NCBI GenBank assembly: GCA_000004695.1
Contig: CM000151.3
Span: 2,624,001-2,688,000, forward strand
Origin: Dictyostelium discoideum
Taxonomy: Eukaryota
Reading direction: 5' to 3'
Length of the DNA: 64,000 nucleotides
In this document: piece by piece, positions 20,607 to 47,271 of the stretch
Layout: every line of letters starts with the position of its first letter
Position numbering within the stretch: the first letter of the stretch is position 1
Position numbers and translations under genes: made by a program
Notes under the pieces: generated by a model
What the model was told of the DNA's origin: nothing
The model's input: the letters and a program-made list of their open reading frames with translations, nothing else
Databases searched by the model: none

Positions 20607-20607
20607 T
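20518..20607. repeat. (AAT)n microsatellite
   Basis: About 30 AAT units lie directly after the FNIP gene stop. Similar long (AAT)n tracts are at 21803-21965 and 60001-60150. Confidence 0.9.
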
Positions 20608-21812: not shown

Positions 21813-21969
<157 letters not shown>

Positions 21970-22002
21970 TAAAATAAAATAAAATAATAAAAATAATATT
22001 AG

Positions 22003-22032
<30 letters not shown>

Positions 22033-22035
<3 letters not shown>

Positions 22036-23664
22036 TTAATTGAATGTAGATTTTGTTTAGAAGAAATTGAAGTTGAAGATCCAATTTATGATAAAAAAGA
22101 ATTTAATTTAAATGAAAATTCAATAAAATCAAAAGATATAGAAATAGAAGAATTAGAATTTAAAGAGAAATTAAATCGAAATAGTAATGGCGGATATGTA
22201 GAATTAACACCAATTTCACAATCAAAGAGACAACGTAAGAATATTGGTAATAGATTAGTTAGACCATGTGATTGTAAAGGTACTCAAAGACATGTACATG
22301 TTAAATGTCTTTGTGAATGGATTGGTAAATGCAATAAATGGTATTGTTCAATCTGTCATAGAGTTTATAATTTATCACCACATCATTTACATTATTGTGT
22401 AATGAAATTACAAAGAAAAGGAGTTTTAAAGAATTTACCACCAATCTATTCAAATACTGAATTCTCTCGTTCAAGTTATTTTGCATTATTAATTTTTATG
22501 GGTACACTAAGTATGTTAATGTTACCTTCAACTCTACCACAACAAAATTCAAAAATTTATTATGGTGTCGACACAATTTTAAATAACCATATAAATAATA
22601 ATAACAATAATAATGGTGTTGGTAGTGGTAGTGGTGGTAGTGGAACAGGTGGTGCAACAGTAAATTCATTATTATTTAATAATTTTAATGGTGGTATAAT
22701 ATCATTTTCAAATGAGGTTAGTGGAGGTGGCATGTTTATGAATTATAATCCACTAGTTGGTATTAATGGAGATACAACCACTGCTGGTTATAATCCAGGA
22801 TTTCTAAATTCGCCATCAGTTTCTTATTATAGTTTTTATCCATCTTCTTCTTCACCATCAATTTATATATCTTCAACGGGAGGTAGCTCTTCAGCAGCAC
22901 AACTTAACTTTCATCAACATTATAATGTAAATTCAATTCAAAGTAATAATAATAAAAATAAAAATAATAATAAAAATGATAATAATGATAATAACAATAT
23001 TAATATCAAAAATAAAGGAAAAGATTTGAATGAAAAATTATTTGAAAGTGATTTTGATCAATATTTTAATAGTGATTCAGCATCAATATTTTCATCATGT
23101 AAATTAAAAAATCAAGATGAAAAGTTTAGTTCTTTTGTTTGTCATTCATCACTTTATAGTCCAAATGTATTAAATTCAAATAATAATCCAAATAATCAAC
23201 AACAAGTTAATTTTCATTTTCCAACAATAGTTCGTAGTAGTTCAACAAGTGGTGGTGGTAGTAGTAACAATAATGATGAAAGTACAGATAGTATAACAAG
23301 TGAACAGTTAAAACAACAACACAAAGTTTTATTAAAGAATTATAATTTTATTCATAATATTGAAAATTATCAACCAACCACCCCAACAACAACTACTTCT
23401 ACAATTTTACAAAATGGTGAAAATCGTTGTATTGATGAGAACGAACAACTACAACAACAAGAAACTGAACAACAACAACAATCAAAAAAATATAAATCAA
23501 CATCAAAATCACCAATTTTAAATAACTTAGGATCAGAATACCATGATGATATTCATTTACAAAATATTTACATTGCACATCAAAAATATCATCGTGTAAC
23601 AATTGCTGATTCATTTAAAAATATATTCTGTACCTTGATCCCAGTTAAAAGGTTCTGTTATTAA
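22033..23664 (+). CDS. RING-CH (RINGv / MARCH-type) zinc-finger protein with predicted TM segment(s); putative membrane E3 ubiquitin ligase
   Basis: C-x2-C ... RPCDCKGTQRHVHVKCLCEWI...CSICH gives the C4HC3 RING-variant spacing. It is followed by a hydrophobic stretch YFALLIFMGTLSMLMLP, then an Asn/Ser-rich tail. Confidence 0.7.
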
Positions 23665-23847
23665 AAATTAAAAAATATTACAATTATTTAAAAAAAAAAA
23701 AAAAAATAAAAGAAATAATTAAAAACAAATAATTTATATTTATTTTATTAATTTTATTAATTTTATTATTGTTATTATTATTAATTTTATTATTATTATT
23801 GTTTATTATTTATTATTATTTATTATTTATTATTTATTATTTATTAT

Positions 23848-27990
<4,143 letters not shown>

Positions 27991-28477
27991 TTGAAATTTT
28001 TTTTTTTTTTTTTTTTAATTAAATTGTTTTTGAAAAAATTTTATAATTTTTTTTTTTTTTTATTTTTTTTTTTTTTTGTCTAAAATTTATTTTTTTTAAA
28101 AAATGAAAAAAATAAAAAAAAATGAAAAAAAATAAAAAAATATCTTTTTTTTTTTTTATTTTAAAAATATTATTTTTATTTTTGATAAAGCCTATAATTT
28201 TCATATGACTAAAATAAAATAAAAAAAAAAGATATTTTTTTGATGATTGAAAATTTTGTGGTTTTTATTTAAAACACTTTGTTTTTTGATTGTGCCGTGA
28301 AACTATTCGTTGCAATCTCATCAATCAACCTATATTTTATTTTCTTTTATTTAAAATTAATTTTTTTTTATTTTTTTATTTTTTACACTCAAAACGGTTT
28401 AACCATGTGCACAATTTTTTTTATTTTGTTTATTATTTTTAAAATTTGATTTTTTATTTTAATAATTTTTTTTTTTT

Positions 28478-28509
<32 letters not shown>

Positions 28510-28627
28510 AATCAATCATATAAAATAAAAATAGAAATTATCTTGTACAAAAATAATTAAAAAAAAAAAAAATAAAAAAAAAAAAAAAAAAAAATTGTTT
28601 AAAAAAAAAAAAAAATAATTTCTAAAA

Positions 28628-30045
28628 ATGGAATCAACAGAATATTTTACAGGTTCAGATTCATTTGATAAATTAACATATTCATTTATGGGTTTAAGAT
28701 TAATAGCATATACATATTTTTTTATTATATGTTTTTATCAAGCATTTTTAGAAATTCTTAAAATGATTAAAAAACAATCAAAAACTACAACAAGATTTTT
28801 TGTATTTTTTTTTCAATCTTTATTTTGTATTTTAAGAACAATTCAAACAGCATTTTTCTATGATAACCACCAATTAGGTAAATTTTTTATTTTTATTTTT
28901 ATTTTTTTATTTTAAAAATTCAATCAATAATAATTCTAAACAAATTATTTTTAGGTATTGGAACACCAAATTTTTTTTTCTTTTCATTAGGTACTGCAGC
29001 AATTTTCCTTGCTTGGGTTTTTATTCAACATTATTGTAAGTAGAATCATATAGTTTTTAATTTTTTTCTTTATGTTTTAATATAATTATTAATTTTTTAT
29101 TTTTATTTTTATTTTTTAAAAAAAGGGTTACTTATTATGTATAAATTTTTTATTTCAGAAGAAGTTAGACTAAATCGAGCAAAACCAATTAATTATTCAA
29201 CATTTATTTTTGCCCTTGTTATTATAATTTATCAATTTACAGTTTCAAGTATAACCTTGCGTAAAAATATTGAAACAGCAGAGTCTGTTGGATTTTTAAT
29301 TTTACTTTTAATTTATGCATCAATAGTTTCGGTAATTAATTTTATTATTATTATTATTATTTTAGTTATTATTATTATTTTTTTAATGGTATTAATTTTA
29401 ATTATTTAATATTTTTTTTTTAAAAAGTTTAATGGTTATTATTTATTAAGACATTTAAAAAAACATAAAAAGTCAACACCATTTAGTCATTTTGATATTA
29501 TGATTTTAAAAACCAAGATTTTATTATCAACAGTTATTTTTGTAGCAGTAACAATTATCATACAAGAACTTATTTTCAATATGTATTATACAGACACTTA
29601 TGAAACACCAAGACAATATTTAAAATTATTTATTGTTGGTGTAATAGAATTTTTTCAATTGGTAAATATTTTTAATATTTTAAAAAATAAAATTAATTAC
29701 ACCAATTATAAAAAAATATTATTAATTATTAATAAAATTATTTTTTTATATTATTATTATTAGTTAGTTGTAATGTTAGTATTATCAGATGGTAAATGGA
29801 AAGTTTATGTATTATTTAAATCAATTAAAACTCATAATGATAGTTCTAGTGAAATGGAAAATTCAAATAGTAATTCTAAAGGTAAAAAGAGTTCAACATT
29901 TGATTTAGGATATAGTGGTAATACAAATTCAAATTTTAATACTTTGGAAATTTCAATTGAAATTGAAAATTCAAATAAATCTTCAACAAGTTTTAGTAAT
30001 AGCAAAAGTGATCTAATTAATTCTTCTTTAAAAGATCCAAGTTAA
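28628..30045 (+). CDS. 7-transmembrane protein of the THH1/TOM1/TOM3 family (TOM1-like), 5 exons, 350 aa
   Basis: Exons are 28628..28877, 28955..29035, 29126..29331, 29428..29661 and 29764..30045 (GTAAAT/GTAAGT/GTAATT donors, AG acceptors, phases consistent). There are seven hydrophobic segments. Blocks QAFLEILKMIKKQSKTTTRFFVFFFQSLFCILRTIQTAFFY and PNFFFFSLGTAAIFLAWVFIQHY parallel plant TOM1 ([37 protein letters not shown] and PGLLFFSAYTLLVLFWAEIYHQ). Confidence 0.6.
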
Positions 30046-30669
30046 AATATTAAAAATAAAAAAAAAAAATTATTTATTAAATTGTAAAAATTAATTTAGA
30101 AATATAATTGTTTTCTTTTTATTTTTTTAAAGTACAACAAAAATAAAAATGTATCAGTTCTCAAATTATTTGCTATTAAAATAAAAATTTCATCGAAAGC
30201 AAATAAAAAAATAAAATTTATAAAAAAAAAATTAAATAATTTCTAAAAAAAAAAGAAAAAATTGCTTTAACTTGTTAAAAATAATAACTTTGTAATAAAG
30301 TTACTCTATAAAATTAATAGATATTAAATATGCATATTACATTACTAATTATAGTTGACACACATTTAAATAATATAATAATAATAATAATAATACTGTC
30401 AACTCATTATAAATAATATAAATACTAAAGAATAATTTTATAAACAATATTGAATATTATAAATATAAACTAATATTAAATAAAGATAACAAAGTATTAT
30501 TCAATTATATAATTATTAATTATATATTTATAAATTTTTTTTTTGAATTGGATAACGCAATTATTATTTGCTTCTCCTTGAGATGCTAGATCTCATTTTA
30601 TTTTATTTTTTTTTTTTTTTTTTACAGGGTCTCTAAAAGAGGGGTTAGTTTACTTTTTTTTTTTTTTTT

Positions 30670-30960
30670 TTTTGTTTCGAATTTTGAATTGTATTATTAC
30701 TTTTGATTAAAACATCTTTTTTGTTCCAACTTTTTTCTAAATCTTTTTTTATTTTATCGTCTGGTTCGTGATTGATGTTTATGACGTATTTGAATTGTTT
30801 TTTTTTTAATTGAGTTTTATCCACAATTTCGCTTATTTTTTGTAGGCATTTGTGTTGCTTAATATTTGTGGTGTTGTTTGTGATTTTCATTTTATTTTCT
30901 TTCTATTTTTTATATTTTTCTTTAAAAAGTTAAAAATCTGGAAATTTTCTGATTAACTTG
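30670..30960 (-). repeat. 3' copy of the ~290-bp B-like module, near-identical to 35590..35875. It is flanked by oligo(A) tracts (plus-strand T runs at 30651-30672 and 30966-31020). The short C-like module plus terminal oligo(A) is at about 30535-30650.
   Basis: The shared block ...gtattattacttttgattaaaacatcttttttgt(t)ccaa...gtaggcatttgtgttgcttaatatttgtggtgttgtttgtgattttcattttattttctttcta...cttgggttcccagg appears at both locations. Confidence 0.8.
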
Positions 30961-30966
30961 GGTTCC

Positions 30967-31024
<58 letters not shown>

Positions 31025-34000
31025 TTATTTATAGAAAGTACTGAGTGAATTATTGTATTTTTTGAGATGTTTAGGAAGTTCTATTGCGTGAAGAGGTGAG
31101 TTCCATTGTCTGCTAAATTGTAATAGCTTTAGCGAGATTAGTGAGTCTAATTTATTTTGTTCTTCTGGCCGTTGCTTTGATTTGATTCTTAATGTTTTGT
31201 TTATAACCGCTTGTGTCCTGTCCCATGCAGCTCTTTGTGTTTTAATTAGTTCACGTATGACTTGTTGTCTGTGAATTATTATTTCTTTTTCATCGTGAAT
31301 GAGTTTATTTCTTTTGTGCCAGATTTTATCGAATATAATAGCTATTAAATTGGCTACTAGTGCAATTTGTAGATGGTTTAAAATCTTCACATTCCAGGTG
31401 TGAGTGGTGTGTCCACACTTAGTTAGGGTGTAGTTGAAGATTTCTTGTGTGTTTTTGATGTGGGCTTTGCAGTTGAAGAATATATGTTCTGAGGTCTCAT
31501 CTTCCCCACACTGTTGGCATGGCATGTTGTATATTTTTGGTAGTGCTTTCAGTGTGTATCTCCATAATAGATCTCTACCTTTCATGTTTATTATTTTTTT
31601 GATTTCTTTAAATGGAAGGTGTTTGCTATTAATTTTGGTCATTATTTCTTTTTGGCCAGGAGTTGGTATGAATTTGTTGTGTTCAGGAGATTGAGTTGTC
31701 ATCATATCTTCGTATATTTTTTTTAATTTTGGGAGGTGTTCGTAGTGTGTTTGTTTATTTTGTGGAGTTTTTAATTGGGTCCATGCTTGCTTGCATTGCC
31801 AGTGTAGTTGTAGTTGATTTTGTTTTGTTGTTGTTTTGTTGTTGTTGTTGTTTTTGAGTTCCTCTTCCCACAGTTTTATATATGAACTAGGAGTGTTACT
31901 TACTCTTTGGTGGAGGTATCTTTCGAATAACCATGCTTTCTGTGCTAGTTCTCTTGTCTTCAGGTTCCATAAGTTTAGGCCACCATTGATATAGTTGTTT
32001 TGTCTTCTTTGTAGTGAAAGAGAGTTTTTAGATTTTGTGTTGAAAACGAATTTTACGATGTTATTTTCAATACTATTGTGTTGTGGTGTGGTGTTGATGT
32101 AAGTGTGGAACGTTAACTGAGATAGTGCATATGTTTTTGCCATTATGAGTCTGCCCATATAGGTTGATGAAGTTGAGTTCCATGTTACTAGTTTAGCTCT
32201 GATGTTGTCTGAGATTGTATTGATTTTGGATTTGATACCCTTATTGTTGAAGTCAAAGCCGAGGTACCTTTCGTTTGATTTTATGACGGTGTATAGCGTT
32301 CTGGTGTTCCATTTGAAAGTGATACACGAGCATTTGGTTTGGTTTATTTTTGCGCTGGTTGCTTGGCAAAACTTCTTGATCCATTCATTCATGAGGAAAT
32401 GGTCCATAAAGTTGTATGCTATTGTTGCTGTATCATCGGCGAACTGTAGTATTTTAATGGTTTCTTTGGTTACACCATTGATGCAGCGGTCATTTATTAT
32501 AGTAGTTGCCATGCATTCAACCACTAATGCGAAGATAGTGGGAGAGATAGGATCACCTTGTTTGGTTCCTCTTTTTGATGTAAAGCTTTTAGATAATGAG
32601 TTATTGATGTACACTGATGTTTCTGATTCATTGAGTAAGTTCATTATTGTGAGGACCATTTTGAGTGGTAGTTTTAGATGTGCAAGAGTACGTAGAATGG
32701 CGTTATGTGAGATTGAATCGAATGCTTTTTCAAAATCATAAAATGTTATGATTGGTTCCATATCCTCTTTTGTGTTAATCTCTCGTTTTATTATTTCTAT
32801 TGTTGAGTTTAAGGTGATGATGTTATCGTGCAGTAGTCTTCTTGGTACGAATCCAGTTTGGAATGGTGAGATTATTTTGTTTAAGAACTTCAGGATCCTA
32901 TTGTTGATTATTTTCGAATAGATTTTGTAATCGACATTTAGAAGTGTTATTGGTCTATAATTATCCAGGTTGTTTGGGTCTCCTTTGTTTTTATATATAG
33001 TAATCAATATCCCTTGTTTGAAGTCCTTTGGGATTGTTGTGTTCCAGAAGTGATTGTATAGTTTTGATATTATTGGTAGAATTTCATTAATGTGGTTTTT
33101 GTAAAATGTTGGAAGGAGTCCATCTTTACCAGGTGCTTTTCCTTCTTGTATTTTTTCAATGCCTAGTCTGATTTCATATCCTTCTATTGGTTGATTAATT
33201 TCGTCCAATATCTTTTGATCAATCCTTTTATTGAATGTTTTTAGGAGTTCGTGGTGAGTGTCTTCGTTGCATTCTCTCTTCTGGTACAGGTTCTCGTAAT
33301 ATCTTCTTGCTACTTCGAGGATATCCTCGTGTTTTGTTACCAAACAATTGTTGCTTGGATCTAGAATTTGAGGGATTTCATTTGTCTTTCTTTGGACTTT
33401 TAACCTTCTGGTTAAGTATTTTGATGGTGTTTCTTTGTTGTTGATGTGGGTGTTGGTTTGGTTTGCTTGTTTTATTCTTACTTGTTCCTTTAGAATATTG
33501 TTGATCTCTTCTTTAAGGAAGATTGCTCTTGAATCTTTGGCTGTTTCGAGTTTTTCTGCGAGTTCTTTTAGTTTGTTTTTGGTTTTATTGCTTTCTCTAA
33601 TTTCTATATTAATTGACAGTTTCTTTATTTCATCTTTTAGTTTCAACCATTGTTCGCAAATGTTTAATTTGTACCATTTGCTGGTGTTCTCTTCGAATTT
33701 TTTATTGTAGTATTTAATTGTTTTATTAATTTTGAGGCTGGTTGAATTCATTTTGAGAGTTTCTAGGTTTTGTCTCCATAGTCTTTCTCCTTTCTTTTGT
33801 TGCTCGTATTCTGGTATTTTTAATTCAATGATTACCATGTTGTGATCAGATTTTAATTTGATTTCCTTAGTAGTAACTATTGGGTTTAGATGGAGTATCT
33901 TCTTTGAGACAAAGACCCTATCGATGGTTGATTTGTTTCTTGGAAATGTGATTCCATTCTTAATTTCTGTAAATTCGAATTCGTCGAAGATTGTTTTAAT

Positions 34001-34246
34001 ATATTTGTTAAGGTTATTATCCACTGAACAGTCTACATTGAAGTCTCCAGTTATAATATCGCTGTGTAGTATTTCTTCTGTGAGATTTTCCTTATACCAT
34101 TCATGTCTTTCGTTTGACTTTGCTGGGGCATAAATGGTTGTGCATTTGATCTGTGTTTTTGCAATCATCCATTCGGAAGATATAATTCTTTCGTTTATTG
34201 TTTTTGTTGTTGTTTTTATTTGGGTGTTGATGATGATTTGTGACAC
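31025..34246 (-). CDS. Retrotransposon ORF2 (APE endonuclease + reverse transcriptase + Cys-rich C-terminal domain), 1073 aa, no internal stops
   Basis: Motifs as above: ITGDFNVDCS (EN), SDHNMVIIELKI (EN), FADD (RT), CQQCG..H..C knuckle. Confidence 0.85.
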   Translation of the reverse strand: MSQIIINTQIKTTTKTINERIISSEWMIAKTQIKCTTIYAPAKSNERHEWYKENLTEEILHSDIITGDFNVDCSVDNNLNKYIKTIFDEFEFTEIKNGITFPRNKSTIDRVFVSKKILHLNPIVTTKEIKLKSDHNMVIIELKIPEYEQQKKGERLWRQNLETLKMNSTSLKINKTIKYYNKKFEENTSKWYKLNICEQWLKLKDEIKKLSINIEIRESNKTKNKLKELAEKLETAKDSRAIFLKEEINNILKEQVRIKQANQTNTHINNKETPSKYLTRRLKVQRKTNEIPQILDPSNNCLVTKHEDILEVARRYYENLYQKRECNEDTHHELLKTFNKRIDQKILDEINQPIEGYEIRLGIEKIQEGKAPGKDGLLPTFYKNHINEILPIISKLYNHFWNTTIPKDFKQGILITIYKNKGDPNNLDNYRPITLLNVDYKIYSKIINNRILKFLNKIISPFQTGFVPRRLLHDNIITLNSTIEIIKREINTKEDMEPIITFYDFEKAFDSISHNAILRTLAHLKLPLKMVLTIMNLLNESETSVYINNSLSKSFTSKRGTKQGDPISPTIFALVVECMATTIINDRCINGVTKETIKILQFADDTATIAYNFMDHFLMNEWIKKFCQATSAKINQTKCSCITFKWNTRTLYTVIKSNERYLGFDFNNKGIKSKINTISDNIRAKLVTWNSTSSTYMGRLIMAKTYALSQLTFHTYINTTPQHNSIENNIVKFVFNTKSKNSLSLQRRQNNYINGGLNLWNLKTRELAQKAWLFERYLHQRVSNTPSSYIKLWEEELKNNNNNKTTTKQNQLQLHWQCKQAWTQLKTPQNKQTHYEHLPKLKKIYEDMMTTQSPEHNKFIPTPGQKEIMTKINSKHLPFKEIKKIINMKGRDLLWRYTLKALPKIYNMPCQQCGEDETSEHIFFNCKAHIKNTQEIFNYTLTKCGHTTHTWNVKILNHLQIALVANLIAIIFDKIWHKRNKLIHDEKEIIIHRQQVIRELIKTQRAAWDRTQAVINKTLRIKSKQRPEEQNKLDSLISLKLLQFSRQWNSPLHAIELPKHLKKYNNSLSTFYK

Positions 34247-34458
34247 CCCTTGTCCTGTTTTATCAATTGGTGCGTGGTGTGTTATTTTGTTTTTATATTG
34301 TTGATTTATTGAGTAAATTTTATTTGTTTTTATATTTGTTTCAGTTAGAAGTGCTGCGTCCAGCTTGTTGTTGTCTAATACGGTGTTTATTATGCTGGCA
34401 GATTGGATGGTGTTGGATCCTTGGACGTTCCAAACACCTATTCTTATTGTGTTTTTCT

Positions 34459-35793
34459 TTATAGTTTTATTTGGGGTAGATTTTTATCTACCTTTTGAAG
34501 TTTCTGGTTTATTTTGTCTTCTAACTGATCTTTACTTTGTTCGTTGTGTTGTTGGTCTTGTGTGTTTGTGGGGTTTTTTGATTTACTGATTTGTTTTAGA
34601 ATTTCCTTGTTGAAGTTGTCTATATCTTCATCCATTTTTGTTTTTATGCTTTTTTGTCCATATTCACCCAATTTTGGTTTGACTGGTGTTTTGTTGGTCC
34701 TGTTTGTTTTGTCTTGTTGTTTGTTTTTTGGTGTGTTTAACAATTTACTTGGTGAATCGATAATTTTCGATGGTGTACCATAGGTTGGGCTGAAACTCAT
34801 GATATGTTTTATTGGAGAGGAGAAGAACCATTGATTTGAAGGGATTGAAAGTGGGAATTCTATTTTTCTTATTGCATCAGTGTTTGGGCTGGTGAAGTCG
34901 AAGATATCATTTACCTCTCTAAGTTTTTCTTCCGTTGTTAGTCTCTTTGTTTCGCCGTGTTGTTTTATTGGTGTATTGTATGGAGATGGTGGTTCAATAG
35001 GTTTTTCTGATTTTGTTTTAATTTCTTGATTGTTTATCGATTGGGTATTGATCTCATTCTCTATTCTTGTTAGTTCATCTACGTTTTCTAGTGATGCATC
35101 TATTACCTTTTGAGCTGTATCATCTAGGGCCATAAATGTTTTATCATTAGATGAGGAGGTGATTGGTGGGATAATGATTGTTCTTTTTCCTTGTTTTGGT
35201 ATTTGTTCTGATGTAGATTGTGGTTGTTGTTCATCTGATTGTTTTTTATTTTTGTTTTCTTCTTGATTTTCTGGTAATGAGGTTTGATCTCTCCATCCTT
35301 TGTTGGAGTGACCAATTAATGTTAGATTGTCTAGTTCAATGATAGTGTCATATTCTTCTACGACTCTTTTCACTGTTTTGATAATTAGAGTTTCGCCTTT
35401 AATTTCAGATTTAATTAGTTTACATCCTTCATTTTCTATTACCCATTCTATTTCTGTGAGTGATTTATACCAATCGAAATCCGTATACATATTTTTTGGT
35501 CTTAGAGTGGTTATAAATTGTCCTTTTAATTCTGCATCGAACATATTTACAAAATAGATTACTGTACTAATACTGTCTGTGAGAATTTTGAATGTATTAT
35601 TACTTTTGATTAAAACATCTTTTTTGTCCAAACTTTTTTCTAAATCTTTTTTTATTTTATCGTCTGGTTCGTGATTGATGTTTATGACGTATTTGAATTG
35701 TTTTTTTTTTAATTGAGTTTTATCCACAATTTCGCTTATTTTTTGTAGGCATTTGTGTTGCTTAATATTTGTGGTGTTGTTTGTGATTTTCAT
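34459..35793 (-). CDS. Retrotransposon ORF1, 444 aa, intact
   Basis: It starts MKITNNTTNIKQHKCLQKISEIVDKTQLKKKQFKYVININHEPDDKIKK.... The first 57 codons are duplicated in the 3' B-like module (ORF 30645..30890). Confidence 0.75.
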   Translation of the reverse strand: MKITNNTTNIKQHKCLQKISEIVDKTQLKKKQFKYVININHEPDDKIKKDLEKSLDKKDVLIKSNNTFKILTDSISTVIYFVNMFDAELKGQFITTLRPKNMYTDFDWYKSLTEIEWVIENEGCKLIKSEIKGETLIIKTVKRVVEEYDTIIELDNLTLIGHSNKGWRDQTSLPENQEENKNKKQSDEQQPQSTSEQIPKQGKRTIIIPPITSSSNDKTFMALDDTAQKVIDASLENVDELTRIENEINTQSINNQEIKTKSEKPIEPPSPYNTPIKQHGETKRLTTEEKLREVNDIFDFTSPNTDAIRKIEFPLSIPSNQWFFSSPIKHIMSFSPTYGTPSKIIDSPSKLLNTPKNKQQDKTNRTNKTPVKPKLGEYGQKSIKTKMDEDIDNFNKEILKQISKSKNPTNTQDQQHNEQSKDQLEDKINQKLQKVDKNLPQIKL

Positions 35794-35869
35794 TTTATTT
35801 TCTTTCTATCTTTTATATTTTTCTTTAAAAAGTTAAAAATCTGGAAATTTTCTGATTAACTTGGGTTCC

Positions 35870-35912
<43 letters not shown>

Positions 35913-35915
<3 letters not shown>

Positions 35916-37535
35916 TCTTTTTTATATGAAAAATGAAATAATCAAAAAAAGAGATTGTTGTTGTTGTTTGTTTTTTTTCGATCTGATTATTTTTTGCTTT
36001 TTTTTGAAAATTTTGCTACGCAAAATTCTCAAAACGAAACAAATAATAAATTACAATAAAGTAAAAAGATGGCTTTTTAAGATAGTTTATTTATTTATTT
36101 ATTTGTTTTTTAAGTCTTTTTTATATGAAAAATGAAATAATCAAAAAAAGAGATTGTTGTTGTTGTTTGTTTTTTTTCGATCTGATTATTTTTTGCTTTT
36201 TTTTGAAAATTTTGCTACGCAAAATTCTCAAAACGAAACAAATAATAAATTACAATAAAGCAAAAAGATGGCTTTTTAAGATATTTTATTTATTTATTTA
36301 TTTGTTTTTTAAGTCTTTCTTATTTGAAAAATGAAATAATCAAAAAAAGAGATTGTTGTTGTTGTTTGTTTTTTTTCGATCTGATTATTTTTTGCTTTTT
36401 TTTGAAAATTTTGCTACGCAAAATTCTCAAAACGAAACAAATAATAAATTACAATAAAGTAAAAAGATGGCTTTTTAAGATAGTTTATTTATTTATTTAT
36501 TTGTTTTTTAAGTCTTTTTTATATGAAAAATGAAATAATCAAAAAAAGAGATTGTTGTTGTTGTTTGTTTTTTTTCGATCTGATTATTTTTTGCTTTTTT
36601 TTGAAAATTTTGCTACGCAAAATTCTCAAAACGAAACAAATAATAAATTACAATAAAGTAAAAAGATGGCTTTTTAAGATAGTTTATTTATTTATTTATT
36701 TGTTTTTTAAGTCTTTTTTATATGAAAAATGAAATAATCAAAAAAAGAGATTGTTGTTGTTGTTTGTTTTTTTTCGATCTGATTATTTTTTGCTTTTTTT
36801 TGAAAATTTTGCTACGCAAAATTCTCAAAACGAAACAAATAATAAATTACAATAAAGTAAAAAGATGGCTTTTTAAGATAGTTTATTTATTTATTTATTT
36901 GTTTTTTAAGTCTTTTTTATATGAAAAATGAAATAATCAAAAAAAGAGATTGTTGTTGTTGTTTGTTTTTTTTCGATCTGATTATTTTTTGCTTTTTTTT
37001 GAAAATTTTGCTACGCAAAATTCTCAAAACGAAACAAATAATAAATTACAATAAAGTAAAAAGATGGCTTTTTAAGATAGTTTATTTATTTATTTATTTG
37101 TTTTTTAAGTCTTTTTTATATGAAAAATGAAATAATCAAAAAAAGAGATTGTTGTTGTTGTTTGTTTTTTTTCGATCTGATTATTTTTTGCTTTTTTTTG
37201 AAAATTTTGCTACGCAAAATTCTCAAAACGAAACAAATAATAAATTACAATAAAGTAAAAAGATGGCTTTTTAAGATAGTTTATTTATTTATTTATTTGT
37301 TTTTTAAGTCTTTTTTATATGAAAAATGAAATAATCAAAAAAAGAGATTGTTGTTGTTGTTTGTTTTTTTTCGATCTGATTATTTTTTGCTTTTTTTTGA
37401 AAATTTTGCTACGCAAAATTCTCAAAACGAAACAAATAATAAATTACAATAAAGTAAAAAGATGGCTTTTTAAGATAGTTTATTTATTTATTTATTTGTT
37501 TTTTAAGTCTTTTTTATATGAAAAATGAAATAATC
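35913..37535. repeat. Tandem array of about 8.16 near-identical copies of a 199-bp unit, forming the 5' end of the retroelement. It is consistent with the TRE5-A A-module, which is reported to occur in variable copy number.
   Basis: Period is exactly 199 bp (the ORF-track ORFs at 35926, 36125, ... 37319 are identical 69-aa artefacts). The unit is aagtcttttttatatgaaaaatgaaataatcaaaaaaagagattgttgttgttg...ttgctacgcaaaattctcaaaacgaaac...ttatttatttatttatttgtttttt. The copy at 36113-36311 carries three point differences. Confidence 0.9.
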
Positions 37536-37583
37536 CATATATATTTATAAAGCTAACAAGCTTTATTACAACTTACATACAAA

Positions 37584-37666
37584 GCAAGGGTAGGAAAGTC
37601 TGGTTAAATCCGTGTGACTTAAGATCTCATCCATTCGGTTCGCGAGTTCGAATCTCGCCTCTTGCA
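37584..37666 (+). tRNA. tRNA-Leu (anticodon UAA), class II with a long variable arm, 83 nt
   Basis: Acceptor GCAAGGG/CTCTTGC (one G-U pair) with discriminator A. D-arm GGA..AGTCTGGTTAAA..TCC. Anticodon loop CT-TAA-GA. T-arm GCGAG-TTCGAAT-CTCGC. A T5 run starts at 37670 (Pol III terminator). Confidence 0.85.
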
Positions 37667-37919
37667 ATGATTTTTCAACTTCATTAATAGGATCATATGT
37701 TCGACTCCTTTTTAATCCTTTAAACATTTATTAAATAAAAACTTAATCTAGATAAAATTGATGGACATTATTTAAAAAAATTAAAAAAAAACTGGAGATT
37801 GTTCGTCACCAAATACACAATCCAATAATAAATAAAAAACGGTGGCTTAGATATGTTGGATTTTGGCCATTCTAGCAAAACACATAATAAGAAATAATAG
37901 TAAAAAATTTTCTAAAAGG

Positions 37920-38660
37920 AAAAATCAAATTTTTTATTATCTAAGTTTTGGTTTAAATGAAAAACCAAAAATTGGAGTACCATCAATTTTAGTATTTTCA
38001 AATGGTGGTAAAATATGGAAATTTAAGACCAAATTGGTTAATAAGAGATATAATTCATCTTGGGAGAAACCCATACCAACACAATTTCTAACACCAATAC
38101 TATATGGAAACCAATTATTTGATTAATTATTTTGATAAATGAATCTTTCTGGAATAAATTCATTTGGTGATGACCAGTATTTTTCGTCTCTAAATATTGA
38201 ATAAAGTGATTGAATGATTTGAGCACCTTTTAGAAATGTATATTTACCATTATCAATTGTAAATTCTTCAATTACTAAACGTGATACACCAATGCTACTG
38301 GTGGGTATAATCTTAATACTTCTTTTAATGAAGCATTAAATAAAGGTGTCAATGGCCGGTGAGATAAATTAATTAATTTATTTTCACTTGGTAATTGTTT
38401 TAATTGAAATTCTTTGCGATTACATTACTCTAGAGTAAACCATTTCATTGTAGCACTATTATTTTCAACTGCAGCTAAAATTCATTTGTAATTGAAATAA
38501 CTGAACACTCTTCTTTTCCATTTACTTTTCTATATTCTGAAATAATTGAATCTAAAACATCTCTTGGATTATCAATATAAATTGTTTCACAATGTTCTTA
38601 ATAATATTTATTAATTATCTTTTTCAAGGGGTCTGAAGGATGACCAAAAATTTTTGAATA
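37920..38660 (-). pseudogene. Cytochrome P450 pseudogene fragment. It covers only the C-terminal ~230 aa equivalent, with multiple in-frame stops and frameshifts.
   Basis: The minus-strand conceptual translation gives ...NPRDVLDSIISEYRKVNGKEE.., LKEVLRLYPPVALV (K-helix ExxR / PPV region), FRDEKYWSSPNEFIPERF (PERF motif) and FPYSIGVRNCVGMGFSQDELYLLLTNLVLNF (heme-binding FxxGxRxCxG). There is a TAA between PERF and the heme loop and at least three other stops or shifts. The +ORF 37863..38126 and -ORF 38038..38226 are pieces of it or its antisense. Confidence 0.75.
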
Positions 38661-38752
38661 AATAAAATAAAATGGATAACAATTATTATTGAGAAAAATT
38701 AATTCTGATTAATCTGTGAAATATTGCTATTTGAAATTTTTTTTTCAAAAAT

Positions 38753-38823
38753 GGCTCCTTAGCATAGTGGTATTGCGCTTCCCTAGTAAGGAAGAGGTCA
38801 TGAGTTCGATCCTCATAGGAGCC
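38753..38823 (+). tRNA. tRNA-Thr (anticodon AGU), 71 nt
   Basis: Perfect 7-bp acceptor GGCTCCT/AGGAGCC with discriminator T. Anticodon stem CTTCC/GGAAG with loop CT-AGT-AA. T-arm ATGAG-TTCGATC-CTCAT. TTTT lies immediately 3' (38824-38827). Confidence 0.9.
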
Positions 38824-38849
38824 TTTTAAAAAATTCTGTTAAATAGATC

Positions 38850-39060
38850 AAGGGATCGATTCTCCAAACAAAAAAACAAACAAACAAAAAAACAAACAAA
38901 CAAACAAAAAAACAAACAAACAAACAAAAAAACAAACAAACAAACAAAAAAACAAACAAACAAAAAAACAAACAAAAAAACTAACAAAAAAACAATCAAA
39001 AAAACAATCAAACAATCAAACAATCAAACAATCAAACAAACCAACCAACAAACAAACAAA
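38850..39060. repeat. (CAAA)n / (CAAACAAACAAAAAAA)n microsatellite, about 200 bp
   Basis: Directly visible downstream of tRNA-Thr. The ORF 38826..39023 is an artefact of it. Confidence 0.9.
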
Positions 39061-39112
39061 TTTTAATTAACAAACAAAAAATACTTTGTTTTAATTAGGG
39101 AGAAGCTAAATT

Positions 39113-39219
39113 TTATTTTTTCAAAAATTTATTTAATAGTCTCTCTCTTCTAAAATACATCATTTCAATTTTTTCTTTGGGAATGATACCATTATTTTGG
39201 TTATTATTTTGGTTATTAC

Positions 39220-39283
<64 letters not shown>

Positions 39284-39894
39284 TATAAAATTGATTGGTA
39301 TTATATTTTGGGTAAAATGCATTTGACCAATTAATATAAAATATCTTTTTGTAAGAATATTTTTAGCTTGTGTTGAAATTAGGTATTTTGAGATTTTTTG
39401 AGAGGTTTTAAAAAATAATTGTCTTCCAAAATTACCAAAATCATAAAGAGTTATTAAAAATTTAAATATTGACTCTAATAATTCTTTTGAATCCCTATTA
39501 TCTATAATTGTTTGTTCATTTGGATATCTTTCAAAGTCAATGATATTATTATTATTATTATTAGTATTTCTTTGAAAGAAATAAGTTTTTAATTTAATTA
39601 AACTATTTCTTATACTTGTATTATGAGATTCCTTTAAATTTTGTTGTACTTGATTTATTGGATCATTATAAATTATTTGAATTATAATTTTAATGAAATG
39701 TTTGATTAATTTCATTATAATTAAATTTATATTATCATTTTGATTTTCATCACTATTATTATTATTACTATTTTCATTTTCATTTGTTAATGATAATAAA
39801 TCCAATCTTGAAGAATAACAATAAAGGAAAGAATTAAATAATTTAAAAATTTCAATTTTACTTGATATTGACTTTTGGTTGAAATTTATAAAAC

Positions 39895-39977
<83 letters not shown>

Positions 39978-40436
39978 ATAAAAATTGATTTAAAAATTAA
40001 AATAAAATTATGTTGAATTATATTATGTAAATCAATTTCTTGATATTTTATATTATTTTTAAATAAATATTTTGTAAATTTAATTAAAACCAATTGTGTA
40101 TGAATACAAGCACTACCATTACCACTAAAATAAAAACCAAATAAATCATTCAATATAAAAGATTTTAACTTTTCAAATTTTAATAAATGAATTGATAAAT
40201 TTTTAAAAGATTTCTTTTTCCTTTGATTCATTTGTTGATCAAATGATTTTAATATGTGAATGAAAATCTTTGAAAACCAATAATTATAATTTGGAAATAC
40301 TTTATCAAATGAATAAATCAATTGATTTAAATCTTTTACATTCTTATATTCTAAATCTTTTAAAAATAAATCTATAAATTTTGATCCAATACTATTATTA
40401 CTAATAATATTATTATTATTATTTAAATTCTTTTGA

Positions 40437-40498
<62 letters not shown>

Positions 40499-42049
40499 TG
40501 TTATAGTTTTTATTGTATTATTACTATTTATATTATTATTTATATTATTATTATTATTATTATTAATATTATTAATTTTATTACTCTCTTTTAAATCAAT
40601 AATAAAATGTGGACAAATTACAACTACCATATTTACATAGGCCATTAAAACTGACATTTTAGAAATACTGTTTGATATATGTTTATTCTCTAAATCATAA
40701 ACTTTTGATCTTTCTTCAAATGAATTTAAAAATCTAATTTGATAATCGAACCAATCGAATTCTGGTATTTTTGAAGGTTGTTGTTGTTGTTGTTTTTGTT
40801 GTTGTGGTAAAGTTTTTTGGGGTGAAGTTGTTGTTGTTGTAATTGTTAAATTAATTTTTGAAGTTGGTAATGGTTTATCAATTTGATATTGATTTTCAAT
40901 TCTTTTTAAAAATTGTAAAATTAATTTTCTTTTTTCAGAAGTTTTTGAAAGATTTGTTGATAACATGAATTGATTATCCTTGAAAAGGTAATGATTTTTA
41001 AATACTAAACAAGTTGAAGTCGGTATTGATAGTAAAAGGAATTGATCGATATACTTTTGATGTAATTCAATTTCAAATAATAAAATTGGATCAATTAGTA
41101 CCAACATAAATATATTTATAAATTGATTTTGATATCTCTTTAAAAAATGTTCATTAAATTCTTCATCTTTTAATATCTTTGTAAAACAATAAATTGATAT
41201 TAAAAATATATTATAATCATTTGAAATTTGAAAATTATTATTATTTTTAAATGTTGGTGGTATATTAATATTTAAAAAGTATTGATTAATATCAATTGTA
41301 GTTGTTGTCGTTGTTGTTGTTGTTGGTGGTAAAGTTGTTAATTTAAATTTCCCAATTAAACAATCACCAATACTCTTTATAAAATTAATTGATTGTTTTG
41401 TATAAATTGAATAAAGTTGAACTGTTATTGGATTAAAAAATGATTGATTATTTGATACTATCTTATATCTATTATTATTTTGATTATTATTATTATTTTG
41501 ATTATTTAATAATGATAAATTATTAATTGGATTATTTACAAAAGTTGATACTAATAAATGAATATATTCGATATATTTCTCTTGAACTGATTTTTCAAAT
41601 GATTTAAAATGTCTTTCTAAATTGAATGAGAAATTATTAAAATATTTTGAATCTTTTTTTATAAACCTAATATATTGATGTAAAATAAATTTTGACCATA
41701 ATTCTCTATTAAAATTATTTTTATTATTATTATTATTATTATTATTAATATTTGAAAATAATGATTTCAAATTTTGATTTGGATACATTTTATCAAAAAT
41801 ATTTGTTACAATGATTGTTGTAATATCTTTAATTAATGAAATTAAAATATCTTCAAAAGAAAATAGATATTGAATCATTAAATTCATTACACTGAAAATA
41901 CCATTTAATATTAAATAACCAGCTTGTAAAAGTATAGTTTCTGATCTTGAAAAATCAATTAATAATGTCATTGATTTTATAATTCTTTTTAATTGATCAC
42001 ATGTAGTTGTTGTTGTTGTTGTTGTAGTTGTTGTTGTTGTTACTATTGA

Positions 42050-42127
<78 letters not shown>

Positions 42128-42360
42128 ACCAATACTATCAATACATAAAACTGCAATTGAAATTAAATTTGAAAACCAACATTTAAATGTTGAAATTGGT
42201 GTATCCAATTCTTTAATGACTTGAACAGAAGATGAATTCAATTTACTCTTTTTAAATTGTTGATATAATTCTTCATATGGATTTTTAATTTGTTCAAATG
42301 AAAAACTGTTAAATGCTCTTTTAAATGTTATAATTCTATATACGATTGGTGTTATTTGAC

Positions 42361-42436
<76 letters not shown>

Positions 42437-44140
42437 TAATAATGTTGATACTATACTTGGTGATTCATTATTATATATATTTATCAATTTCTGAATTATA
42501 TTATTGTTATTGTTATTATTGTTATTATTGTTATTTGATTTTGGTGGTGTGGTAGAAGGAGAAGGAGAATTTAATTTTCTTTTATAGTAATTTATTAAAC
42601 ATAAAAATAAACTCGTATTAATTAAATCTAATGATGCTGGTTCAATATTTGATTTTAAATAGAGATCTGAAAAAGAAGAGGAAGATAAAGATGATGGTGA
42701 TGAATAATCTGGTTTAAATAATTCTATAATTTTATTATAAGATGGTGCAGTATCATTAATAGAAGGATTTGATGCTGATTCTTGTAAAAATGATAACAAA
42801 ACTATAAATTTATAAATCTCTTCGAATAGTGTATCTAAACTAATTAATGGTGATGTTATCTCTATATACCTAAATAAAATTACCATTATTTTTGAAAATT
42901 GATTTATTATTGATTCCAAATTATTATTATAATTTTTATTACTATTATTACTATTATTATTATTATTTGTAGTAGTTGTAGTTGTAGTAGTAGTGGCGGT
43001 GGTGAGATTTATTAATATTTGAGTATTTTTTTTAATGAAATTTAAAACTAATTTTGAAATTAAACTCCAATTTTCAAATTTATTTTCAAATTGATAATTT
43101 AAAAGTTTAGAAATTGGTGATATTAAATAATTATTATTATTATTGTTTTGATGATCTTTATTTTTTTGAAATTTTAATAAAGCTTTAGTTATCTCTAAAG
43201 TAATATTCAAGTAATGTATTATTGATTGATTGTATAATTCAAACTTTTTATTCCTATTTTTATTATTTATATATAAATTAAAGTAATCCCAAAATGTTGA
43301 TGTTATTGGTGCTAAATTATCTTGATTATCTTTTTTAAATAATTTTAAAAAGTTGAATATAAATTTTTGAAGATTATATTCATCATCTTCGTTATCTTCT
43401 TCTTCTTCTTCTTCTTCTACTTCTTCATAATCATCATCATTATCATATTTATTTTTATTTCTACTATTTCTACTTTTATAACTAACATTATTATTATTAA
43501 TTGTACCTCCTCTAAAATATTAATTTATTTAAGATTAGTATAGTAAATTAAAATATTATAAAATACACGATAAAAAATCTGATAATGATTTTTTTTTTTT
43601 TTTTTTTTTTTTACCTTTTAAGTGAATCTAATTTTGAAATTGATATTAAGATAATTGATAAAAATGAATCAATTATTGAATCTAATATATTTGAATTATC
43701 ATCATCTAAAATAAAAGTAGTATTATCATAAACTGATATTTTAAATAATTGGGCTAAAATTGAATTAATTAAAAAACTATGATTCAATTGTTTAATTTGG
43801 TCATTTAATAATGTTGATTTTTGACTAATTAAAAATTCTAAAGAATAAACATTCTCTTTTTTTTGTTTTTTTTTTTTTTTTACTATGTTAATAAAATATT
43901 ATTTGATTAAATGAATTTTATTTTATTAAAATTATACATACGTCTTAAATAATGTTTAATTCTATAAATTAAGCAATTAATGAATGTATTATTATAAACA
44001 TTAAGGTATTGATTATTATTATTATTATTATTTGTAAAATAAGTAATTAAATCTTTAAAAAATTTAATAAATTCTTTGGTGGTACCCCCTTTACTATTAA
44101 AATCAAGTACCGTTTCTTCAATTTCATTAAATATATTCAA
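39113..44140 (-). CDS. Very large low-complexity hypothetical protein (~1621 aa, 3 exons), with poly-Asn and poly-Thr tracts
   Basis: Exons are 43942..44140 (MNIFNEIEETVLDFNSKGGTTKEFIKFFKDLITYF..., donor GTATGT), 43615..43882 (donor GTAAAA) and 39113..43511. The acceptor AGs and phases 1/2 are consistent. The ORF-track 1365-aa ORF is the 3' part; it begins at a TTG, not a true start. No recognisable domain. Confidence 0.55.
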
Positions 44141-44191
44141 AAAAAAATTATTTATTTCCTTTGTTTAATAGTTTTGTGAGTGTGAGTAAAA

Positions 44192-44233
<42 letters not shown>

Positions 44234-44312
44234 AGTATTTACATCTTTGGAAATAATTGGGCAAAATCTTAATTTTCTATTTTTATATTGAAAAAGGAAA
44301 ATTATTTTATTG

Positions 44313-44386
<74 letters not shown>

Positions 44387-44725
44387 ATTATTATTATTAT
44401 TATTATTATTTCTATTTAGAAAGTTGTATTCATTATCAATCATTTTCAAAATGAATGAATGAATTTTTTTTTTTTTCTTTTTTTTTTATTATTTTGGCGC
44501 CAAAATTTTTTTTTTTCCAAAATTAAAAAATAATAAAAAACTAATAAAACAACAACAAATTTTAGTTAGTATACAAATCTGCCAATCAAGCCATTAATGG
44601 TACAACTACGTTATGATTGGTACCACTTATGGTTAAAATAAAATTTCGGTGTAATAAAACCAAAAATATTTATTATTTAATTTAATTTTTTTTTATTTAA
44701 TTTAATTTTTAATTGGTGTTTCATC

Positions 44726-47271
44726 TCATCTGTCTTTAAAAGATTTTAAACCACAAATTAATTTATGATCACTTTGCCAATCAACAGTTTGACAATCACG
44801 ATCACAATAGTTTGTTGTACATTTTGAAGTGCAAATTTTACCACAATTTGCGCATAGCGATGGAGTTGTGGGGCCTTGAATGATCCAATCACAATCGTGA
44901 ATTTTTTGATTATCAAATTTAGAACGACATGTTGAAAAGGCAATAAACGAGTATTTACCACCAACTTTCAAGCTTGAAGGATCGATACATTGACCACCTT
45001 CGACAGCGAATCTACATGGGAAACCTTGGACGTCCCATAAGAGTAATTCGATATCATCACCTCTGACCAACGGTTGAGCGGCGAGTGTACTTGGAAAAAA
45101 CATTTTTCAAAGACAGTTCTAATGTCTGGCATTAGATCAGCCAATGGGTTTGTACCACCTTGATCAAATGAAGACTGAGCAACAAGTTTATAATCCTTCA
45201 TTGTGATTCTTGGATTCTCTGGAAACCCCTTTGAGTAGCCACCATACTCTTTATGTCTAATGAGTTTATCATTTTCATGGTCTTTTAATAATTGACGAAA
45301 CTCTTTAATCACTTGAATTTCTCTAGCAGACTTTTTAACCTTTGCTTCTTGAGCGTTTGCAAATACAAATGGTACTTTTTGATCGAGATCAACCTTTACC
45401 TTTCTTCCCATTTAGATGTGGCTTTCTTTGAGAGATTAGCCAAGATTTGACTTGCTTTACTTGAGCCTTTGATTGAAGCAACCTCTAAATATGTTAAACC
45501 TAATTTACCATTTTTAGTGACATTGATACCTTTGCCATGACCATCAATTTGTAAATACAATTTACCCAATTCAAATGTAGCTTGAACTATATTATTTTCA
45601 CCATCATTATATTCCAAAGATTTTTGAAAATTCTCCAATGCTTTTGAAATGGCAGATGATTCAGATGATTTCAATAATAATAATCTACCTAAATTTAAAT
45701 TTGCTTCACCAATACCAGTATTCATTTTATAACCAGTTGACATTGCAATTGATAAGTTTGTAGCTTTTGTATACATTTGCTTTGCCTTTTATAAATTACC
45801 TTGACTACGATAATAATCACCCATGGGTGCAACGAATACATCAGCAAACACCGTTTCATTTAAACCTTTACTTTTGATTAACATTTTCTCAGCATTTTTT
45901 AAATCTTGATAAAAGAATTTACTTGTCTGTGCAGCTGGTTCATATTCCAATGATGGATTCTTATCGAAGTATTCCCTTCTTTGCTTTACATTTACTTTAA
46001 TCAATGCATCACTAACCAAAATCAATTTCAGGCTCTGATATCTCTGCAGCAAGTTTAACAGTATCCATTTCTGGTAAAGTACCCGCCCTTGTCATATTGG
46101 TAAAACGTTATCAGAATCTATCGGCTCGGTAAATGCTGATTTCTGTTTTGTACCCATTACTGACCTGACGCTATCCTTATACTTTTTATTATTTGGCTCA
46201 AGATCCAAAGCTAATTTATAAAAGTAGGCTGCCTTCTTTGATTTTTCCAATAGTGTAAAACACTTTGCAATCACAGCATACCCCTCTGCCCTGCATGGAC
46301 GAATGTAAAGTAATCTTTCAATATCAGATTTCGCAATATTTAAATGCTGTTGCATTCTAGTCTTCACCTTTTCACACCACTGTAACCAACATTTTCCTCT
46401 TGAAAGGTATAGATCAGAAATGAAATTCTCTGTCAAACCTCTATAATCCAATGCTAATGAATTGAATTGCTGCTTGCCCATTACCTGCTTTAATCATTTC
46501 ATCAGCTTGATACTTATATACCATCGCCTCTGCCATTTCATCTAAATGTGGATAAAGTGGTTTCAACTCCAAATCATCTGAATTATCAGTCCATGAATTA
46601 AGTTGTTTAGTCCAATCTGCAACACTCATAGTTTTATCCAATACAAATATACTCTCAACAACTTTAAGTGTAACTAATTTTAAATGATTCCATGAATTGA
46701 ATTGTTCACTATGTTCACAACCTTCATTACATTTTCTTGATTTTTCAGTTGGTTCTTTATCATTATTTGTATCATAAAATCCCTTTATATATATATATAT
46801 ATATGTTAATACTTGTAATTTTATTATTATTATTAATATTATTATTATTATTTTATATTATATTGTATATATGAATATATACCTCATAAAAATGACTACC
46901 ACATGCTAAAATAATTTCATTTTCATTTTCTAATTGACTTGATGGTATATTTTTCCATGGATGACTAACCTAAACATCAACAAATAGATTGAAATCAAAA
47001 TCAGAAGTACGACCAACTGCTAATTTTTTCATCATTAATTCACTTTTAAGATATCTTAATTTTGTATTTTTAATTAAGAATTCACCTCCAACTGGACCCT
47101 CTTTATATTCTGCATAAGTTTTTTCCCATCTTTCATAAAAAATCTTTCTAAAATTTCTGAATGCTCTATCAGATGAGCCAAACCCTTTAAAAAAAAAAAA
47201 GAAAAAAAAAAAAAAAGAAAAAAAATATTTACTCTGTATTTGAATTTATATTTTTCATCAAGACTAACCAT
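44726..47271 (-). pseudogene. Disrupted gene encoding a TPR/Sel1-like repeat protein with a C-terminal MYND zinc finger. It has 2 normal AT-rich introns at the 5' end, then one in-frame TAG and at least five frameshifts.
   Basis: Six successive minus-strand ORFs in different frames overlap each other by 15-40 nt. There is no AT-rich intron between them (44726..45103, 44968..45411, 45396..45776, 45789..46052, 46092..46481, 46441..46641). Sel1/TPR-like segments include YFYKLALDLEPNN and ATFELGKLYLQIDGHGKGINVTKNGKLGLTYLEVASIKG. MYND is CANCGKICTSKCTTNYCDRDCQTVDWQSDHKLIC. The 5' exons are MVSLDEKYKFKYR|GTAAAT.. and GFGSSDRAFRNFRKIFYERWEKTYAEYKEGPVGG...FNLFVDV-TAG-VSHPWKNIPSS.. GC is about 40% compared with about 28-33% in neighbouring exons. 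Pseudogene versus assembly error cannot be decided from the sequence alone. Confidence 0.5.

Follow-up and report, generated by a model that had tools for sequence, protein, structure and literature searches.

A 199-bp tandem array at the 5' end of a TRE5-A-type retrotransposon next to a tRNA-Leu(UAA) gene of Dictyostelium discoideum

Full-length copies of the non-LTR retrotransposon TRE5-A (formerly DRE), designated TRE5-A.1, follow the plan AB-ORF1/ORF2-BC, in which an A-module of about 200 bp with promoter activity is followed by a B-module of about 290 bp that defines the start of ORF1 (PMC3159450). ORF2 is reached by a -1 frameshift (PMC5911963). The A-module is the promoter from which RNA polymerase II transcribes the plus-strand RNA (PMC3159450, PMC5633606); the module can be swapped for a heterologous promoter, and an upstream tRNA gene boosts activity (PMC3159450, PMC5633606, PMC5911963). 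TRE5-B, for its part, has been reported without a C-module (PMC4559204). The non-autonomous TRE5-A.2, which has no ORF2, possesses the same 5' region of A-array, B-module and ORF1 as the element described here. The tRNA-proximal end of TRE5-A was reportedly characterized by Marschalek et al. in 1992 as a lone B-module preceded by one A-module or several, and the variable number of A-modules is an old and already known observation. In the literature searched here, A-module multiplicity is not stated.

The closest parallel outside of Dictyostelium is offered by the L1Md elements of the mouse (A, Gf and Tf). [quoted passage not shown] The unit number varies between copies in both systems, reaching about 50 in mouse L1Md and extending from 1 to 36 in the 25 TRE5-A copies surveyed below, to which the present copy adds an array of 8. 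L1Md arrays are eroded by 5' truncation, and their regrowth has been modelled by second-strand priming or by unequal crossing-over (PMC6454616, PMC9022269). The two systems also differ: L1 monomers are followed by a tether before ORF1, and one array can combine different subtypes of them, in contrast to the perfect uniformity of TRE5-A arrays; moreover, TRE5-A targets tRNA genes in a haploid and gene-dense genome. The likeness is one of function and does not make the two members of one family, and kinship in sequence is not to be expected.

In the following we describe a TRE5-A-type copy with a long A-module array in a window of 64,000 nucleotides of the D. discoideum genome (contig CM000151.3, positions 2,624,001 to 2,688,000), a stretch that is strongly AT-rich, and we compare it with its orthologous locus and with other members of the family in an independent assembly.

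The element and its A-module array

The array forms the 5' end of a non-LTR retrotransposon of 7003 bp on the minus strand (30535-37537), whose layout in sense order is A-array, oligo(A), B, ORF1, ORF2, oligo(A), B, C and A10 (Table 1). The first-pass annotation of this DNA had placed the array at the element's 5' end directly beside the tRNA gene, and rightly so, as the array stops 48 bp and the element 46 bp away from that gene. The B-modules form a direct repeat of 331 nt with four mismatches (5' copy 35912-35583, 3' copy 31009-30679), and the C-module matches at 95.8% the C region that ends a 36-unit tandem element of the independent assembly GCA_054883475.1. The product of ORF1 is 100% identical to the AX4 proteins EAL70570.1, EAL70891.1 and others, and no Pfam domain was found in it. 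ORF2, with an intact frame, is 100% identical to EAL70571.1 and EAL70890.1; its annotated product, counted from the ATG at 34168, comprises 1047 aa. The reverse transcriptase domain of ORF2 (Pfam RVT_1, 3.3e-33) and the -1 frameshift are firm. Sub-threshold Pfam matches to Exo_endo_phos (E = 0.021) and zf-RVT (E = 0.039), which give the order APE-RT-ZF, weakly suggest that APE and ZF domains are present as well, and the motifs IRIGVWNVQG, GDFN and SDH can be read from the N-terminal sequence.

Table 1. Positions of the element, its modules and its target site in the window
Feature	Position	Strand	Basis or remark
tRNA-Leu(UAA) gene, integration target, head to head with the element	37584..37666	+	ARAGORN; Rfam tRNA, 49.1 bits
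Target-site duplication, tRNA-side copy TATATATTTATAAA	37538..37551	.	single at the empty site
Extra 5'-junction nucleotides (sense 5'-TG)	37536..37537	-	periodicity break at 37536 and empty-site comparison; neither target nor repeat
A-module array, 1623 bp	35913..37535	-	TRF, periodicity, motif count, unit comparison
First A unit, 5'-truncated, 158 nt	37535-37378	-	canonical register (unit starting AGATCG)
Seven full A units, 199 nt each	37377-35985	-	canonical register
Variant unit (canonical unit 6)	36184..36382	-	sense changes 59T>A, 64A>G, 99C>A, 122A>G
Terminal partial A unit, 72 nt	35984-35913	-	canonical register
Oligo(A)39 at the A/B junction, start of the B-module	35874..35912	-	counterpart is A54 before the 3' B copy
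5' B-module, holds the ORF1 start codon at 35793	35583..35873	-	direct repeat with 3' B
ORF1, 444 aa	34459..35793	-	ORF list; protein identity
ORF2 frame, 1152 codons	31025..34483	-	overlaps ORF1 by 25 nt, -1 frame
Oligo(A)54 and 3' B-module copy	30679..31022	-	repeat comparison
C-module (3' UTR end), 134 bp	30545..30678	-	position after 3' B; sequence match
3' oligo(A)10 tail	30535..30544	-	empty-site comparison
Target-site duplication, distal copy TATATATTTATAAA	30521..30534	.	flanks the element's other end

The structural features of a full-length TRE5-A.1 are all shared by this element. TRE5-A inserts upstream of tRNA genes at a distance of about 50 bp, its 5' end facing the gene, and here the distance is 46 bp, with element and gene on opposite strands. 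The AB-ORF1/ORF2-BC arrangement is complete, including the duplicated B-module and the 3' C-module; the A-modules of about 200 bp occupy the extreme 5' end, with the array abutting the 5' junction; ORF2 follows by a -1 frameshift and combines RT with APE and ZF, the latter two at sub-threshold level; and a 14-bp duplication and the A10 tail are hallmarks of target-primed reverse transcription. It is this diagnostic architecture, together with AX4 proteins of 100% identity whose annotation reads only "hypothetical protein", that points to TRE5-A, and we have hardly any doubt that the array is the A-module array of this family. The first-pass annotation had likened the unit to the A-module of TRE5-A, and both the length of 199 bp, against about 200 bp published, and the architecture agree with this (PMC3159450). 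The 3' end of the tRNA-Leu(UAA) gene matches the primer Leu(UAA)rev, which was used to capture TRE5-A integrations (PMC3159450); a TRE5-A-specific primer sequence that would link the name to a sequence was not found in the literature searched. From the present unit, the A units of TRE5-A.2 are distinguished by 7delA, 103C>T and 178insA, and ORF2, absent there, is intact here.

The array itself was called by Tandem Repeats Finder at 35887-37535, with a period of 199, 8.3 copies, 99% matches and 0 indels, and exact 199-bp periodicity spans 35913-37535, i.e. 1623 bp or 8.16 units, the very figure that had been given for it before. Likewise, the motif GCTACGCAAAATTCTCAAAACGAAAC, said to be contained in each unit, has eight occurrences, all of them within the array (0 expected from 100 shuffles). 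Since the A-module is known from the literature as an RNA polymerase II promoter, the array amounts to a tandem stack of promoter units. A poly-T/AT tail had also been ascribed to each unit; this describes the forward strand correctly, but the element lies on the minus strand, and in its sense the tail is an A-rich stretch. A coding role for the array was rejected, because the period of 199 is not divisible by 3 and the array contains no ORF that reaches 80 aa. At a permissive threshold, two tRNAs were the only Rfam matches, and the 199-bp unit matches no RNA family.

Seven identical copies and one with three substitutions had been reported, but the actual total is four substitutions (36261, 36284, 36319 and 36324), which span 63-64 bp. 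In the register of the first-pass annotation they are divided, two and two, between the units 36112-36310 and 36311-36509, which leaves six full copies identical; in the element's own registers, for example in the canonical unit 36382-36184 on the minus strand, all four fall into a single unit. Clustering of four random changes within 63 of the 1623 bp has a probability of P = 2.2e-4, which argues that the four changes represent one event or one bad read. Two of them, 59T>A and 64A>G, hit the TATA-like CATATAAAAAAG. The unit with four substitutions, sought as a donor in conversion or in a mix-up of reads, was absent from all other A units checked (about 25 elements), and the idea that it derived from another copy by either route was not borne out, there being no carrier among these elements.

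Empty site and A arrays in a second assembly

The orthologous locus in GCA_054883475.1 was found via two flanking genes. This independent assembly is probably the one of the laboratory strain AX2-214, which combines Nanopore and Illumina data and has an N50 of 5.3 Mb (PMC12745789). In the alignment to it, identity is 99.80% over window positions 20000-30534 and 99.88% over 37538-45016, while the 7003 bp of 30535-37537 are missing from it and the two flanking alignments overlap by 14 bp. The 14-mer TATATATTTATAAA is found once at the empty site and twice around the element, which identifies it as the target-site duplication. The right flank shows 0 substitutions in 7.5 kb, and all 11 substitutions and 2 indels of the left flank are confined to one patch of 105 bp (20845-20949). 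With flanks almost devoid of differences the two genomes are nearly isogenic, and as the site is empty in one of them, the insertion is young. It is very recent and belongs to the AX4 lineage of D. discoideum, in accordance with the continuing activity of TRE5-A in laboratory strains (PMC4559204).

Compared with the canonical TRE5-A.1, the present copy starts 41 nt inside the first unit, carries 2 extra nucleotides and has one unit with 4 private substitutions. Its 5' end bears a signature of the type documented for TRE5-A 5' junctions, at which both non-templated nucleotides and short 5' deletions occur (PMC5391098). The neighbouring gene of 543 aa is DDB_G0273077/DDB_G0273767; the proteins of the flanks and of the element are entries of AX4 chromosome 2, and the locus is situated within the segment of this chromosome that is duplicated in AX4 (PMC12745789), the gene pairs of which have identical products.

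With ORF1 variants as handles, 25 distinct TRE5-A 5' ends were retrieved from GCA_054883475.1. The number of full A units per element in this sample is 1 (in 11 copies), 2 (in five), 3 (in two), 7, 8, 8, 10, 21 and 36, with TRE5-A.2 copies at 1, 2, 8, 8 and 21 units; the variation in A-module copy number that had been claimed for the family is thus real and covers 1 to 36 units among the 25 elements. All of these arrays are internally identical save for the length of one run, A8 or A9, a difference that may be due to Nanopore homopolymer errors. To probe for inheritance, the long arrays were compared for the positions of these A8/A9 variants, and no shared pattern was seen. The A units of TRE5-A.1 in GCA_054883475.1 are 100% identical to the main unit of the present array, and the latter is the least uniform of all arrays compared. 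The first-pass annotation had suggested that an array this long and this uniform reflects a special recent expansion or conversion, and in this it is not supported: arrays of 7-36 units exist elsewhere and are more uniform. Measured against other TRE5-A copies, an array of 8 units is unexceptional, and with units 100% identical across all TRE5-A.1 copies its uniformity is a trait of a young family and not the result of a local event.

In most copies the first letters are (G)AGATCGAAAAAAA, at a distance of 39-51 bp from a tRNA gene, which sets the canonical start of the unit, and 20 other copies display the head-to-head geometry at the same 39-51 bp. As in arrays of the L1Md type, each unit might itself be a promoter or start site, a point on which this clustering of 5' ends at one position offers indirect evidence. 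The A region of every copy ends in a partial unit of 72 nt before the oligo(A) of the B-module, so that the minimum is 1.36 units. This terminal partial unit is also present in a wild-strain variant with 92%-identical A units, and two wild-strain copies, a small sample, have the minimal 1.36 units; the one sister-species copy examined has no array. The 36-unit element mentioned above has the structure A36-(B-ORF1-ORF2)x3-B-C, in which the core is triplicated.

Origin and count of the A units

We lean towards the explanation that a full-length TRE5-A.1 inserted 46 bp upstream of the tRNA-Leu(UAA) gene in the AX4 lineage and that the array arrived with the insertion. Target-primed reverse transcription would have placed the element upstream of the gene. 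The A-module would serve as the internal RNA polymerase II promoter of a plus-strand RNA that is both mRNA and template for transposition, and the array would already have been contained in the cDNA at landing, its template being the RNA of a master element that had 8 or more units. During this process the canonical 5' end (AGATCG...) of the cDNA may have been shortened by 41 nt and two untemplated nucleotides added, and the array would not have grown at the locus afterwards. Its uniformity could follow from the youth of the insertion and from the near-identity of A units throughout the active family, and the 72-nt terminal redundancy in every copy is a likely seed for changes in unit number. 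Arrival with the insertion is favoured by the empty, near-isogenic site, by a 5' end of the kind left by a truncated cDNA and by the existence of masters with 10-36 identical units. Against this reading, a perfect 199-bp array can change its length by unequal exchange on the time scales of laboratory culture, and rearrangement between internal repeats, at the level of DNA or of reverse transcription, is observed in the same family in A36-(B-ORF1-ORF2)x3-B-C. Furthermore, the mosaic interior of the present element, or the lack of its ORF1 in GCA_054883475.1, could stem from recombination or from a chimeric or consensus assembly.

Alternatively, the element might have had a single A unit, or few of them, on insertion, and the number might have risen to 8 later, through slippage in replication or unequal exchange of sister chromatids between the perfect 199-bp repeats, seeded by the 72-nt redundancy; this resembles the expansion idea of the first-pass annotation. 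The direct redundancy is indeed able to misalign in every copy, otherwise near-identical copies range from 1 to 36 units, the tripled B-ORF1-ORF2 core of the 36-unit element would result from exchange between internal repeats, and of the two models put forward for monomer arrays in mouse L1, one invokes unequal crossing-over (PMC6454616). However, with the site empty in a near-isogenic genome, several expansions would each have to be fixed within a short laboratory history, and the single variant unit was not propagated, so that growth at the locus appears unlikely. The same repeats could have been exploited by the reverse transcriptase in the present event, if the nascent cDNA, having arrived at the 5' end of the RNA, re-annealed via 72-199 nt of repeat to a unit further downstream, be it in that template or in another, and this unit was then copied once more. 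Such multiplication would suit the terminal redundancy found in all copies, including the 92%-identical wild-strain variant, and template switching between the two B-modules of the RNA would also be expected to produce (B-ORF1-ORF2)x3. The perfect homogeneity of the array is what recopying of one template unit predicts, but inheritance from a homogeneous master accounts for it equally, and what has been published on insertions of tagged elements, from constructs without A-modules, is confined to nucleotide additions or short deletions at the 5' end (PMC5391098). We consider this route very unlikely for the array at hand. As a general proposition, that TRE5-A gains A units in retrotransposition through re-priming of the reverse transcriptase on the 72-nt redundancy and thereby offsets 5' erosion, we hold it to be quite unlikely. 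If true, such re-priming would have generated the uniform arrays with their 8, 10, 21 and 36 units, and Dictyostelium, haploid and tractable and with an assay for marked TRE5-A at hand, would become a model for the regrowth of monomer-array LINE promoters such as those of mouse L1.

A different question is how far the count of 8 can be relied upon. This count, and possibly the variant unit too, may be a product of the assembly, in which reads from near-identical TRE5-A copies were merged; such an artefact would touch the count only and is compatible with any of the other explanations. The earlier caution about collapse or expansion of the array in assembly was justified, as the sequence is that of the Sanger-era AX4 chromosome 2. 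TRE5-A has about 70 genomic copies, and the complex repeats of the AX4 reference assembly are not known to have all been resolved individually. The array, 1.6 kb of identical units, is longer than one Sanger read of a whole-genome shotgun, and the duplicated chromosome 2 segment in which it lies, with gene pairs of identical products, adds to the difficulty (PMC12745789). Internally, the element looks like a mosaic when set against two haplogroups of AX2-like copies, and 6 of its substitutions are private; an ORF1 of exactly this sequence is present at several loci of AX4 and nowhere in GCA_054883475.1. Moreover, the 11 substitutions and 2 indels at 20845-20949 resemble a low-quality patch in one of the two assemblies. 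On the other hand, the junctions are sound and specific for the locus, showing a regular target-site duplication together with a 5' end that is out of the ordinary, which indicates that the insertion and at least the first units are real, and since family members in a Nanopore-based assembly have arrays of 7-36 units, a count of 8 is biologically unremarkable. On balance, an origin of the count in the assembly seems somewhat doubtful to us.

Significance for TRE5-A and the AX4 reference

The array is real and ordinary, a known trait of TRE5-A, and there is little new biology at the locus itself. What the analysis adds is modest and consists of the empty-site evidence for a lineage-specific insertion, the spectrum of 1-36 units and a warning about repeat interiors in AX4: in this Sanger-era reference, the interiors of repeats and the repeat counts need confirmation by long reads before they are trusted. 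The insertion separates AX4 from a near-isogenic, probably AX2, genome and can be used to mark the lineage and to illustrate that TRE5-A is still active. Finally, arrays of 1-36 identical units with an invariant 72-nt end pose a testable question, namely how the promoter arrays of non-LTR retrotransposons are kept up.

Ends of the A array and joined copies

In every TRE5-A copy, both that of the window and those at loci L001-L028 (drawn from comparison assemblies, among them GCA_054883475.1), the A region is closed by the same 72-nt partial unit (AGATCG...GACTT), which precedes the oligo(A) of the B module. This terminal piece is present even where the A units themselves are only 92% identical, as in the wild strain assembly GCA_054859385.1 (L028, 7994-8292), and in one subgroup of loci (L022-L027) a 3-nt deletion is confined to it. 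The oligo(A) opening the B module differs in length within the window element, with 39 nt in the 5' copy (35874-35912) versus 54 nt in the 3' copy (30969-31022).

In one TRE5-A copy of GCA_054883475.1, located at tRNA-Pro(UGG), the A array is 36 units long (7.3 kb). Behind it the B-ORF1-ORF2 core is repeated three times in tandem, at intervals of about 4890 bp, and a final B-C closes the element. The coding part of this copy is concatenated via exchange or template switching between the two B modules. At several tRNA genes (L012, 6842-9910; L013; L020; L027) two TRE5-A copies are arranged in tandem, as in literature reports of TRE-TRE tandems; the second copy sits between the first copy and the tRNA gene, and the two members differ in unit number as well as in unit variants. 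No TRE element was found upstream of tRNA-Thr(AGU), the second tRNA gene of the window.

Coordinates of the tRNA-Thr gene, its neighbouring repeat and the TRE5-A features
Feature	Position	Remarks
tRNA-Thr(AGU)	window 38753-38824	1.1 kb from tRNA-Leu
(CAAACAAA)n repeat, 196 bp	window 38865-39060	begins 40 bp downstream of tRNA-Thr(AGU)
36-unit TRE5-A copy	CM142511.1, about 3.015-3.047 Mb; L019 2639-9907 and downstream	loci L017-L019
Terminal partial A unit	window 35984-35913	equivalent position in all loci L001-L028

Interior and flank compared with other copies

Several AX4 loci, spread over three chromosomes, have an annotated protein that matches the ORF1 product of the window element (34459-35793) exactly; for the near-isogenic assembly GCA_054883475.1 no such protein is recorded. 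The interior of the element (31025-35870) has six private substitutions and switches between two haplogroups of TRE5-A copies found in that assembly. Possible explanations for this ORF1 distribution and the mosaic interior are a burst specific to the lineage, recombination, or an assembly that is chimeric or a consensus.

In the 10.5-kb left flank, all differences from the other assembly (11 of 11 substitutions and two single-base indels) are confined to a 105-bp intergenic patch (20845-20949), which looks like a low-quality stretch in either assembly or a small converted tract. Homopolymer lengths are also unequal between the two at 22003, 43589 and 44197.

The variant A unit

Four private substitutions distinguish the variant A unit, two of which (window 36319 and 36324, corresponding to positions 64 and 59 in the sense direction of the canonical unit) convert its TATA-like CATATAAAAAAG into CAAATAAGAAAG. 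If these substitutions are real, the variant unit may be a dead promoter within the array.
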